This document shows, piece by piece, positions 15,549 through 17,768 of a stretch of 64,000 nt of DNA. Each line of letters starts with the position of its first letter. The stretch's first letter is position 1. The notes below the pieces were generated by a model. The model was not told where the DNA came from, ran no database searches, and was given only the letters and a program-made list of their open reading frames with translations. Both the position numbers and the translations under genes were made by a program. The DNA comes from Escherichia virus TH57: the sequence record MT446422.1; one strand, 5' to 3'.

Positions 15549-15938
15549 ATGTATAAAGTGTATGCGGATTATCAGGCAAATCCATCTGAAAAACCAGAAT
15601 GTCAAATTGGGTGGGCACATGACACCCTGCTTGAAGCGGTAGATAATGCCCAGAAATTAGGATATAGTTACGTAGATATTGTTCAACCATCTGGAACAGT
15701 TATTACTCTTGAAGAATTCAAGAATATCAAAACAAACTTTTTGCTCTTTGCTGGTGATAGCTATTATCCTCGCGGCGGTTATGCTGACTTAATTGCAAAA
15801 GCTGCGACTGAAGATGAACTGCGTGATATCATTAAAGAAAACGAGAAGAAGCCTTGTTATGGTTCCAACCGTTTTGACTGGTGGCAGATTGTTAATGCCA
15901 ATACGCATACTATTGTTGATGAAGGAACATGCGAATGA
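15549..15938 (+). CDS. hypothetical protein
   Basis: ORF track 15501..15938; ATG at 15549 follows the upstream stop. Confidence 0.5.
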   Translation: MYKVYADYQANPSEKPECQIGWAHDTLLEAVDNAQKLGYSYVDIVQPSGTVITLEEFKNIKTNFLLFAGDSYYPRGGYADLIAKAATEDELRDIIKENEKKPCYGSNRFDWWQIVNANTHTIVDEGTCE

Positions 15939-16408
15939 ATATCAAATTTGGTCAGACCATCCCTAAAGGTTATGTGATTGAAATTGAAACCTGGGAAAAT
16001 GATGGTGACAACTATAAAACCCAGACTGTATTTGGTGTAGAAGAACAAGAAATTCAACAGTACAAATATATCCTGGAACTTTTCCATGGTTCGCATTGCA
16101 ACAACCGCAATAAATGTGGTAATTCAGAATGGGATGTGGTTAAACACTTGGTTATCGCCCACATTGAATCTGGTGTAAAATCTGGTCAGTTAACCCATGA
16201 ATTTTTAAGTAAGGTTCTGGGTGTAGAAGATTTAGATGCATTGCTAAATGGCGATGAAGAATACTACCTGAATGAAGCCCTGACCGAACTTTTAGGTATG
16301 GCTTGTGAATATGATGGTGATTTCATGCGTGTAATTTCTTATGTTAAGCTATATATAATCGAAGAAGAAATCCAAATCCCATCTGTTAAAGCGCTTGATA
16401 TGCTTTAA
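15929..16408 (+). CDS. hypothetical protein
   Basis: 159 aa ORF overlapping the upstream gene end. Confidence 0.5.
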   Translation: MRMNIKFGQTIPKGYVIEIETWENDGDNYKTQTVFGVEEQEIQQYKYILELFHGSHCNNRNKCGNSEWDVVKHLVIAHIESGVKSGQLTHEFLSKVLGVEDLDALLNGDEEYYLNEALTELLGMACEYDGDFMRVISYVKLYIIEEEIQIPSVKALDML

Positions 16409-16485: not shown

Positions 16486-16560
16486 GGCCCTTTAGCTCAA
16501 TGGGAGAGCTGTCAGCTCATAACTGATAGGTAGCTGGATCGAAACCAGCAAGGGCCACCA
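16486..16560 (+). tRNA. tRNA with CAT anticodon (Met, or Ile if lysidine-modified), CCA encoded
   Basis: Manual cloverleaf: acceptor GGCCCTT/AAGGGCC, D-stem GCTC/GAGC, anticodon loop CTCATAA, T-arm GCTGG-ATCGAAA-CCAGC, 3' ACCA. Confidence 0.8.
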
Positions 16561-16564
16561 AACG

Positions 16565-16641
16565 CGGGGTGTAGCTCAATTGTATAGAGCAACGGTCTTC
16601 TAAACCGTAGGTTGTGGGTTAGAATCCCACCACCCCGACCA
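16565..16641 (+). tRNA. tRNA-Arg (anticodon TCT), CCA encoded
   Basis: Manual cloverleaf: acceptor CGGGGTG/CACCCCG, D-stem GCTC/GAGC, anticodon stem ACGGT/ACCGT with loop CTTCTAA, T-arm GTGGG-TTAGAAT-CCCAC, 3' ACCA. Confidence 0.85.
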
Positions 16642-16656
16642 ATTACCGAGGATATT

Positions 16657-16896
16657 ATGGTTATTAGTGAATCATATGCAGTTATGGATATAACCAACAA
16701 CGAGCTGGTTTATAGCTTTGATGAGTTTGATGAAAATGATAAACAAGTCCCATGGTTTGCATTAACTGCTCCACCTGAGCATAATAAATATCTAAGTTTC
16801 CCGACTCGCAGATTAGCAACAAATTTTATGGAATTCAATGACCTTGATTCCAATTATAAGGTTGTTAAAGTCAAATTAGCTATTACAATTGAATGA
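16657..16896 (+). CDS. hypothetical protein
   Basis: ORF track 16612..16896 overlaps tRNA-Arg; first ATG past the tRNA is at 16657. Confidence 0.45.
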   Translation: MVISESYAVMDITNNELVYSFDEFDENDKQVPWFALTAPPEHNKYLSFPTRRLATNFMEFNDLDSNYKVVKVKLAITIE

Positions 16897-17195
16897 GAAA
16901 CCGGGTCGCTACCGGTAAGTCGTCGGACTGATGTTCCCTGTTTAAGGACTGACATTAATAAATCTTTACGATTTGTTGATGTCCCCTTATATCACAGCTG
17001 AAACGGCGCACCGAATTATCGATTCGAGGAAATATCTTTGCCGTAAGCCGAGTAGCGTTTTTGACGGAACGTTCGGATATGGTCGAGATATGGCCTTTTA
17101 AAAATATTGAGTAGCGTCAACTGCTTAATAACCGGGTTCGAATCCCGGCGTTTCGTACAAACACTTGCCTTGCAGGTGGAACCCCGACAAGGTAT
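16897..17195 (+). ncRNA. candidate small stable RNA(s) with a tRNA-like T-arm (analogous to T4 species 1/2 RNAs)
   Basis: About 300 bp without a supported ORF right after the tRNAs; contains CCGGG-TTCGAAT-CCCGG T-arm-like hairpin near 17136-17152; followed by a terminator. Confidence 0.3.
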
Positions 17196-17225
17196 AGCCC
17201 CTCCCGAAAGGTTGGGGCTTTTTTA
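17196..17225 (+). terminator. rho-independent terminator
   Basis: AGCCCC...GGGGCT hairpin followed by TTTTTT. Confidence 0.55.
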
Positions 17226-17259
17226 TACCCCGAATAAATTTGAAATTTTCTTCAAAAAG

Positions 17260-17292
17260 TAGTGTACATCCGAATTGACCGGGTGCATAATG
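17260..17292 (+). promoter_or_regulatory. early promoter cassette (type B, CATAATGATTCCATACTGAGTTAC leader)
   Basis: -35 GTGTAC, 18 bp spacer, -10 CATAAT; same cassette recurs at about 18148, 18676 and 37240. Confidence 0.5.
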
Positions 17293-17342: not shown

Positions 17343-17768
17343 ATGAACTTTCTGACCCTGACCTCTGCATTCTCTGTTACCCGCATCACTAACAAAATGG
17401 TTGCTGACGAAGTATGTGAAATCTGCATTCGTGAAGATGCACTTATCCATCTGACTTCAACCCAGATTGTTGCCATCGCCAAGTCCCTTAATTCTGAACT
17501 GAAGGTAAACACCAAACAGTCAAAAGAGTCCATCATTGAATTAATCCAAGCTGAAATGATTGAATTCCCAATTGAAGAAGTTAAAGAAGAAAAAATCCAG
17601 TCCAAATCTGGTAATGCTCGTGACATTTGCTTCCAGGCATTTGCAGAAATTGATATGGCAGATGGTGCAGCTCGTCGCGCTCTGATTGATGTTCTGGTTA
17701 ACACCCATGATATCAAAAAGACTGTTGTTCAGTCCTATGCTTCTAACTTCCGCAAAGCTCAAAAATAA
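17343..17768 (+). CDS. hypothetical protein, paralog of 18222..18665 (shared C-terminal domain)
   Basis: ORF track 17262..17768; ATG at 17343 after promoter cassette and GGAG RBS; C-terminus MADGAARRALIDVLV...SYASNFRK. Confidence 0.55.
   Translation: MNFLTLTSAFSVTRITNKMVADEVCEICIREDALIHLTSTQIVAIAKSLNSELKVNTKQSKESIIELIQAEMIEFPIEEVKEEKIQSKSGNARDICFQAFAEIDMADGAARRALIDVLVNTHDIKKTVVQSYASNFRKAQK

Follow-up and report, generated by a model that had tools for sequence, protein, structure and literature searches.

In a 64 000-nucleotide (nt) stretch of DNA from Escherichia virus TH57 (MT446422.1; one strand, hereafter called the window), the segment at positions 16897–17225 is, judging from its alignment with phage T4, the rnaD–rnaC locus, which comprises two non-coding stable RNAs at the 3' end of a transfer RNA (tRNA) cluster and ends at an intrinsic terminator. 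In our model, rnaC is a tRNA-like four-way junction in which the acceptor stem is stacked on a canonical T arm, and the D and anticodon arms are replaced by a 70-nt arm and a 10-base-pair (bp) arm, respectively. Complementary and co-varying loops in these two arms point to a kissing-loop lock in rnaC. Taking identity, biogenesis and fold jointly, and setting function aside, we regard this interpretation as very probable. The element itself is already known; T4 species 1 and species 2 RNA have been known since the 1970s, and the locus is a rediscovered textbook T4 feature, ordinary in a T4-like genome.

Identity and conservation of the locus

The window derives from a T4-like phage, and its closest matches were Escherichia phages vB_EcoM_RZ and CJ20 and Shigella phage SP18. 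In the T4 annotation (NC_000866.4), tRNA-Arg is followed by rnaD (species 2 RNA, 71171–71053) and then by rnaC (species 1 RNA, 71046–70908), and the window aligned with T4 almost base for base from position 16893 through the trailer, the terminator being alignable as well. The identity to T4 was 87.6% over 121 aligned positions for rnaD (16893–17012) and 98.6% for rnaC (17019–17157), which aligned over 139 of 139 nt. Moreover, teqsoen, RB3 and RB10 carry an rnaC with 100% identity to that of the window, and the same sequence is named rnaC or rnaD in the records of RB3, RB10, T2L and Kha5h. The T2L record (AJ880101) runs rnaC from C+1 to a terminal ACA, which corresponds to 17020–17159 in the window. 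T4 and the window thus share the sequence, gene order, trailer and terminator of the locus. They differ in that rnaD starts 2 nt after tRNA-Arg in T4, where the window has an open reading frame (ORF) of 79 amino acids (aa), that T4 has eight tRNA genes and the window two, and that the tip of rnaD is partly different. In T4, RNAC has been shown by Northern blot, and RNAC and RNAD have been classed as late RNAs (PMC9697503). Our literature searches returned no newer functional work on RNAC or RNAD and no description of the rnaC fold.

An initial annotation of the window, made from the letters alone, had proposed a candidate stable RNA that might be the counterpart of the two stable RNAs of T4. 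The alignment with NC_000866.4 bears out the counterpart, since it matches rnaD and rnaC, and the segment is indeed a stable-RNA locus, although it contains two RNAs, not one, together with a trailer hairpin and a terminator. The folding check suggested there also gave a clear result, in that the stretch from 16893 to 17230 folds much more strongly than shuffled sequence (z = –5.85); the corresponding z-scores were –4.55 for rnaC and –3.38 for rnaD.

DNA similar to the region was present in ~750 phage records. rnaC was at least 99% identical in 490 of the 750 and 95–99% identical in a further 193, and rnaD was at least 99% identical in 26 of 734. The flanking coding regions are 73–80% identical to T4, compared with 98.6% for rnaC. 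By this comparison rnaC is an island of strong conservation, under strong purifying selection; the suggestion of a degenerate tRNA holds only in so far as rnaC is tRNA-like. A search of 5426 E. coli genomes with both RNAs gave no match at E ≤ 1. With the pattern TCGAGGA-gap-GGCCTT-gap-GGYTCGANTCC, none of the 120 matches listed on bacterial genome contigs was real, which does not establish absence from bacteria, and five real T4-type contigs were among the matches listed on metagenome contigs, the others being mostly chance matches in GC-rich DNA. A pattern of the 3' domain added only ordinary tRNAs and one truncated copy on viral contigs.

The annotation of these RNAs in phage records is uneven. 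They appear as 'hypothetical protein' (G2469_00144, ar1_138, CPT_Marfa_145), as 'tRNA-OTHER' (G9062) or 'tRNA-Lys' (G2133), or are left unannotated, and they are properly named in few records, such as those of the RB series and T2L.

Secondary structure of rnaC

Homologues of rnaC were collected from GenBank phages and IMG/VR, and the structure was tested on 18 distinct sequences from about ten genera. The homologues include EcS1 (Kagamiyamavirus), KM16 and NM4.3 (Moonvirus), Entb_43 (Karamvirus), fHe-Yen9-01 (Tegunavirus), Melville and a Proteus phage (Gelderlandvirus), PEi20 (Edwardsiella), Marfa and related Klebsiella phages, and Kosakonia phage 305; their lengths are 142–146 nt, with differences of 1–2 nt. 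With the tested structure, 91.3% of the cells were paired, compared with 37–46% when the partners were slid by 1–3 columns, and 27 of the 54 pairs had changed on both sides (i.e. co-varied). None of 500 shuffles reached the observed values of pairing and co-variation. RNAalifold, applied to the seven most divergent sequences alone, returned the same architecture with 13 co-varying pairs, and covariance model R1 gave a sole hit in the window, on rnaC (161.7 bits, E = 3.5e-41).

The ends of rnaC are tRNA-like. The 7-bp acceptor stem leads straight into a T stem of 5 bp closed by a UUCRANY-type loop, and both helices co-vary. In the acceptor stem, the third pair is A-U in 7 and G-C in 11 sequences, and the helix is entirely Watson–Crick or G.U in fHe-Yen9-01 (the Yersinia-phage type) and L010. 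In the T arm, two of the five pairs co-vary (CCGGG/CCCGG, CCUGG/CCAGG and CUUGG/CCAAG). U73 is invariant, and the three bases after it differ between lineages (ACA, UCA or CCA), with CCA encoded in the Klebsiella-phage type; these bases are consistent with a tRNA-like 3' maturation. The initial annotation had pointed out the T arm, which is present as CCGGG (17132–17136), TTCGAAT (17137–17143) and CCCGG (17144–17148), and the CGTTTCG that follows it (17149–17155). It had further paired CGTTTCG with a CGGAACG located about 90 nt upstream. CGGAACG does occur, at 17065–17071, but at a distance of 78 nt, and the proposed stem is not supported, as none of its pairs co-varies, 10 of the 18 sequences break the third pair, and it clashes with the well-supported apical stem and loop–loop helix described below; the true 5' strand is CGATTCG at 17020–17026.

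The remaining two arms are unlike those of a tRNA. The long arm at the D-arm position occurs in two unrelated sequence versions, yet it is always 70–71 nt long with 23–26 bp, and a 5' bulge of 3–4 nt always lies directly under an apical stem of 5–6 bp. This apical stem is 96% paired, with co-variation in five of its six pairs. The second arm, at the anticodon-arm position, is 8–10 bp long in every lineage; co-variation is seen in 8 of the 10 pairs, and 95.6% of the cells are paired. One unpaired A separates it from the T arm. A 9-mer, GAGUAGCGU, occurs twice in T4-type rnaC (17050–17058 and 17109–17117), each time in the 5' strand leading into a kissing hairpin, and is absent from the Melville/Klebsiella-type rnaC; the repeat may reflect an internal duplication.

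Complementary loops of rnaC

In the long arm the apical loop reads UUGACG, and the second-arm loop, CGUCAA, is its exact reverse complement. All six pairs of this loop–loop helix are intact in 18 of 18 aligned sequences, and two positions co-vary. Compensatory double changes have occurred at different positions, giving UUGAUG/CAUCAA in Yersinia phages and UUGGCG/CGCCAA in Klebsiella phages, and the Marfa homologue, which lies outside the 18-sequence alignment, keeps UUGGCG/CGCCAA.

The loop–loop helix probably forms within one molecule. In such a fold, a ~22-bp stack, built from 10 bp of second arm, 6 bp of kissing helix and 6 bp of apical stem, would run alongside the lower ~20 bp of the long arm, and the 3–4-nt bulge would serve as the hinge; this stack geometry is our own estimate. 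A locked rnaC would be a compact and nuclease-resistant body with no free anticodon-like loop.

Placement and loss of rnaC

The ~150-nt gap between tRNA-Trp/tRNA-Phe and tRNA-Gly/tRNA-Trp is taken up by rnaC in EcS1, Entb_43, Melville and the Proteus phage. These copies retain their own short leader and a UACAA trailer without an adjacent rnaD, and the leader is AAUUAU, AACAAU or AAUAAU throughout, including the copies between tRNAs. The site after rnaD holds rnaC in the window and in most T4-type relatives, and lacks it in Dhakavirus dhabil, VR5 and others, including several IMG/VR contigs. The empty site always has the junction GCGCACCGAA/CACTTGCC (dhabil, VR5 and several IMG/VR contigs), and the trailer hairpin lies directly 3' of rnaD in phages without rnaC. 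In VR20 (an IMG/VR copy, probably vB_EcoM_VR20), a 127-aa ORF (MLTYAEFLNRNT...) takes the place of rnaC in the region ~510 nt past the 3' end of rnaD; it has no PHROG match and is flanked by rnaD on one side and by the same trailer hairpin and terminator on the other. AV115 has neither rnaD nor most of rnaC. Because rnaC is placed in tRNA arrays in some phages and is absent or replaced in others, it behaves as a tRNA gene cassette that is dispensable in nature.

A gene that ARAGORN calls tRNA-Asn(gtt) in AV115 (OR352945.1, 1453–1530) is a chimera of another tRNA-like 5' part and the 3' end of rnaC. The two parts are joined inside the T loop, so that the sequence from GGTTCGAATCC onward is the rnaC 3' end and rnaC trailer, and the acceptor strands mismatch. 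The arrangement resembles the outcome of a deletion through T-loop recombination.

Structure and variation of rnaD

rnaD is an independent structured RNA, separate from rnaC. Its 24 sequence variants share an essentially invariant 5' 48 nt and 3' 22 nt, and its hypervariable tip occurs in three unrelated versions (T4-type, T2/HP3-type and dhabil-type). In the 5' hairpin, the closing pair is A-U in 14, G.U in 3 and G-C in 2 sequences, and the remaining four pairs are invariant. The consensus fold contains a long irregular stem that joins positions ~27–55 to the 3' end, with co-varying pairs at 41/111, 52/102, 53/101 and 54/100, and shows neither a T arm nor a tRNA-like appearance. Pair 41/111 is U-A in 9, A-U in 7 and U.U in 3 sequences. 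The window carries U.U at this pair (16932/17001), as do two other variants, which looks like an intermediate or recombinant state of the two types. When the T4-like phage BW1 was evolved on the semi-permissive host ECOR34, an identical single-nucleotide polymorphism (SNP) in rnaD was found in all three evolved lines (PMC12685909).

The trailer sequence CAGGUGGAACCCCGAC (17173–17187) is nearly complementary to the invariant rnaD sequences GUUCCCUG and GUCG(G) (16919–16940). This complementarity could in principle bracket the position of rnaC, but its invariant sides preclude a co-variation test, and it may be due to chance. Another complementarity, of 6 nt between the rnaD loop and an rnaC GUAGCG, was set aside, as it is at chance level or involves invariant bases unable to co-vary.

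Organization of the locus and surrounding genes

The features of the locus are listed in Table 1. The gene order in the window is tRNA-Met, tRNA-Arg, the 79-aa ORF, rnaD, rnaC, trailer hairpin and terminator, and the upstream pair tRNA-Met and tRNA-Arg were the sole genes called by ARAGORN and at Rfam gathering thresholds. The stop codon TGA of the 79-aa ORF (16894–16896) overlaps the first bases of rnaD. The strong terminator noted in the initial annotation was recovered by the terminator scan, with a stem AGCCCC/GGGGCT at 17196–17219 and a T run at 17219–17224; it is kept in T4, dhabil, AV115 and VR20 and is labelled as a terminator in the G2469 record. The loop of the trailer hairpin varies between CUU, CUUG, CUA and CUUA, and the stem is unchanged.

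Table 1. Features of the rnaD–rnaC locus and adjacent genes in the window
Feature	Position	Strand	Sequence, basis or remark
tRNA-Met(CAT)	16486–16560		ARAGORN and Rfam gathering thresholds
tRNA-Arg(TCT)	16565–16641		ARAGORN and Rfam gathering thresholds
79-aa ORF	16657–16896		phrog_33509 of unknown function; between tRNA-Arg and rnaD
rnaD homologue (T4 species 2 RNA)	16893–17012	+	~120 nt; alignment to T4 rnaD
rnaD 5' hairpin	16900–16916	+	stem ACCGG/CCGGU, invariant 7-nt loop GUCGCUA
rnaD hypervariable tip	16941–16990	+	includes co-varying lower stem
rnaD–rnaC spacer (rnaC 5' leader)	17013–17019	+	GAAUUAU
rnaC homologue (T4 species 1 RNA)	17020–17159 (T2L convention); 17019–17157 (NC_000866 convention)	+	140 nt in the T2L convention
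rnaC acceptor stem, 5' strand	17020–17026	+	CGAUUCG; predicted to pair with CGUUUCG 17149–17155; 7 bp including two U.U mismatches
rnaC long arm (D-arm position)	17027–17096	+	70 nt
Predicted kissing partner 1 (apical loop of long arm)	17061–17066	+	UUGACG
A-rich single-stranded linker	17097–17104	+	UUUAAAAA; AAAA(A)U core kept across the 18 sequences
rnaC second arm (anticodon-arm position)	17105–17130	+	10 bp; 17105–17114 with 17121–17130, 6-nt loop
Predicted kissing partner 2 (second-arm loop)	17115–17120	+	CGUCAA
rnaC T arm	17132–17148	+	CCGGG, loop UUCGAAU, CCCGG; 100% paired
rnaC acceptor 3' strand and 3' end	17149–17159	+	CGUUUCG, U73, then ACA in place of tRNA CCA
Trailer hairpin	17162–17178	+	CACUUGC-CUU-GCAGGUG; stem kept across phages, loop variable
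Intrinsic terminator	17196–17224	+	AGCCCC...GGGGCU, then U run; terminator scan

The flanking ORFs of 159 aa (15929–16408, phrog_2290) and 141 aa (17343–17768, phrog_9997) both belong to families of unknown function, and the PHROGs search of the neighbouring ORFs returned only such families. A T4 late promoter (TATAAATA) was looked for near the rnaD–rnaC locus and was not found there. A sigma-70-like sequence, TTGTTA-16-TACAAT, is located at 16862–16889, 4 nt before the start of rnaD, with a score at chance level.

Comparison with known RNA families

Neither RNA reached the gathering threshold of any family in Rfam 15, and rnaC appears to have no Rfam family. The hits obtained under relaxed settings (PrrF, small nucleolar RNAs, NsiR1 and tRNA-Sec at 16.6 bits) were dismissed as noise. 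In agreement with the initial annotation, which had held the segment not to be a canonical tRNA, no RF00005 hit was obtained in 16893–17225 even at E ≤ 10 (gathering threshold, 29 bits), ARAGORN found nothing there, and the only hit of the tRNA clan was tRNA-Sec, at 16.6 bits against a threshold of 47 bits. Where a canonical tRNA carries its D arm and an anticodon stem of 5 bp closed by a 7-nt loop, rnaC has a 70-nt arm and a 10-bp arm with a 6-nt loop.

The module that rnaC shares with tRNA, transfer-messenger RNA (tmRNA) and YrlA is the acceptor stem and T arm. The tRNA-like domain of tmRNA likewise consists of an acceptor stem on an arm with a canonical T loop and has no functional anticodon arm, and by analogy both RNAs may be embedded in, or processed like, tRNA precursors. 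However, a tag reading frame is absent from rnaC, as is the G3.U70 alanine identity pair, pair 3:70 being A-U or G-C; the discriminator of rnaC is U73, its encoded end is ACA and not CCA, and ARAGORN found no tmRNA in it. For YrlA (RF02553), the sole hit was 16.3 bits against a threshold of 69 bits and lay over the true tRNAs (16527–16592).

The prohead RNA (pRNA) of phi29 resembles rnaC in being phage-encoded, structured and ~120–170 nt long, and in having two complementary loops that co-vary between related phages. The same two-loop pattern is found in rnaC with UUGACG/CGUCAA, UUGAUG/CAUCAA and UUGGCG/CGCCAA. There was no sequence or Rfam similarity between pRNA and rnaC. The oligomerization of pRNA was established by means of its complementary, co-varying loops, which pair from one molecule to the next in a portal-bound ring for DNA packaging, whereas the estimated geometry of rnaC is compatible with pairing within one molecule. 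A further comparison is the C4 antisense RNA of P1 and P7, which host RNase P cuts out of a longer transcript by virtue of a tRNA-like fold (cited in PMC11143913). The loops of C4 pair with a target messenger RNA (mRNA) and control the ant gene, whereas those of rnaC would pair with each other.

Possible roles and alternative explanations

We propose that rnaC would be transcribed along with the tRNAs and excised by the host tRNA-maturation machinery, with RNase P cutting its 5' end, followed by 3' trimming and possibly CCA repair. Such excision would explain how, in other genera, rnaC can lie between tRNA genes. The RNA would be stabilized by its tRNA-like ends and by its locked body, and a decoding role is not expected because the loop at the anticodon position has 6 nt and would be occupied. 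The function that we favour, though tentatively and at less than even odds, is that of a non-decoding tRNA mimic that offers its acceptor/T-arm minihelix to a host or phage tRNA-binding factor and acts as a decoy, sponge or scaffold.

Several observations weigh against our interpretation of the locus as a whole. Transcript evidence for rnaC and rnaD comes from T4 only, and the rnaC ends given in NC_000866 and AJ880101 lie 1–2 nt apart. The tandem U.U mismatches weaken the acceptor stem, in which 74.6% of the cells are paired. Co-variation alone does not separate intramolecular from intermolecular loop pairing. The phages without rnaC, the ORF in its place in VR20 and the loss from AV115 indicate that both RNAs are dispensable in nature. 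In the literature, the function of RNAC and RNAD is still called unknown (PMC3014915, PMC9697503, PMC12685909).

The locus might instead be a cis-acting processing and termination module, in which the RNAs are by-products that act as punctuation in the tRNA transcript, protect the upstream tRNAs from 3' exonucleases and offer an entry for RNase P or RNase E, without any function in trans. The location at the 3' end of the tRNA cluster directly before the terminator would suit such a module, as would the loss or replacement of rnaC without loss of viability and the retention of the trailer hairpin and terminator with rnaD where rnaC is absent. However, 3' protection needs no invariant loops, loop–loop co-variation, fixed arm lengths or ~99% identity across genera; moreover, rnaC lies mid-array among tRNAs in Karamvirus and Gelderlandvirus phages, and both RNAs accumulate as stable species in T4 (PMC9697503). 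We consider this explanation unlikely. The loops might also join separate molecules hand in hand, in the manner of phi29 pRNA, so that rnaC would be a dimer or ring oligomer. Two 6-nt loops that are perfectly complementary and co-varying fit such pairing, but the lower long arm (~20 bp) is about as long as the ~22-bp stack and the bulge lies at the hinge site, which by the estimated geometry fits closure within one molecule, and to our knowledge T4 DNA packaging needs no RNA. Oligomerization thus seems quite unlikely to us.

It is improbable, in our view, that one or both RNAs regulate host or phage mRNAs by antisense pairing seeded by the rnaD tip or by a loop. The wholesale swapping of the rnaD tip between lineages on an invariant scaffold and the convergent rnaD SNP during adaptation to one host (PMC12685909) would be in line with this, and the RNase P-processed C4 RNA (cited in PMC11143913) provides a precedent; however, the rnaC loops are mutually complementary and hence probably occupied, no target was identified, neither RNA has a match in the 5426 E. 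coli genomes at the threshold given above, and 6-nt complementarities are expected by chance. We hold it to be highly improbable that rnaC is a decaying or selfish pseudo-tRNA, i.e. a tRNA gene disrupted by insertions and without a function of its own. The tRNA-like ends, the calls of tRNA-OTHER or tRNA-Lys by some pipelines, the gain or loss of the cassette and the recombination of its T loop with another tRNA gene in AV115 are features that a pseudo-tRNA could have, but rnaC is far more conserved than its flanks, compensatory changes are found in every helix and in the loop–loop contact, and its length is kept across about ten genera. Finally, the region might encode small proteins. The initial annotation had described it as free of ORFs, which is correct in substance, as the only plus-strand ORFs, of 42 aa (16973–17101) and 51 aa (17107–17262), both start with TTG. 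Such ORFs do exist, and G2469, AR1, Marfa and others carry a coding annotation over the corresponding sequence; however, no frame stays open across the homologues, whose lengths differ by 1–2 nt, and the small ORFs are therefore not genes. In addition, the 42-aa ORF spans the rnaD/rnaC boundary, and there is no such boundary where rnaC lies between tRNAs, and the substitutions are compensatory for RNA helices. A coding function is scarcely credible, and we conclude that neither RNA is coding.

Implications

The part of this work that may prove useful is the co-variation-supported model of rnaC, with a tRNA-like top half and a body predicted to be locked by kissing loops. A covariance model of rnaC could correct the annotation in hundreds of phage genomes, and the cassette behaviour together with the natural presence/absence variants provides handles on the decades-old question of the function of species 1 and species 2 RNA. 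Extending the proposal of a tRNA mimic, we speculate that rnaC is a self-locking mimic conserved in Tevenvirinae of Enterobacterales, serving as a decoy or inhibitor of a host factor that recognizes the acceptor/T-arm half of tRNA, that rnaD, given its exchangeable tip and convergent adaptive SNP, is a host-specificity companion, and that the two form an RNA counter-defence or host-takeover module; in this full form, the proposal is doubtful. If it were true, the candidate targets of rnaC would be, for example, a tRNA-directed immune nuclease, a toxin or a tRNA-processing enzyme, and an RNA-based module of these phages would have gone unrecognized for ~50 years.

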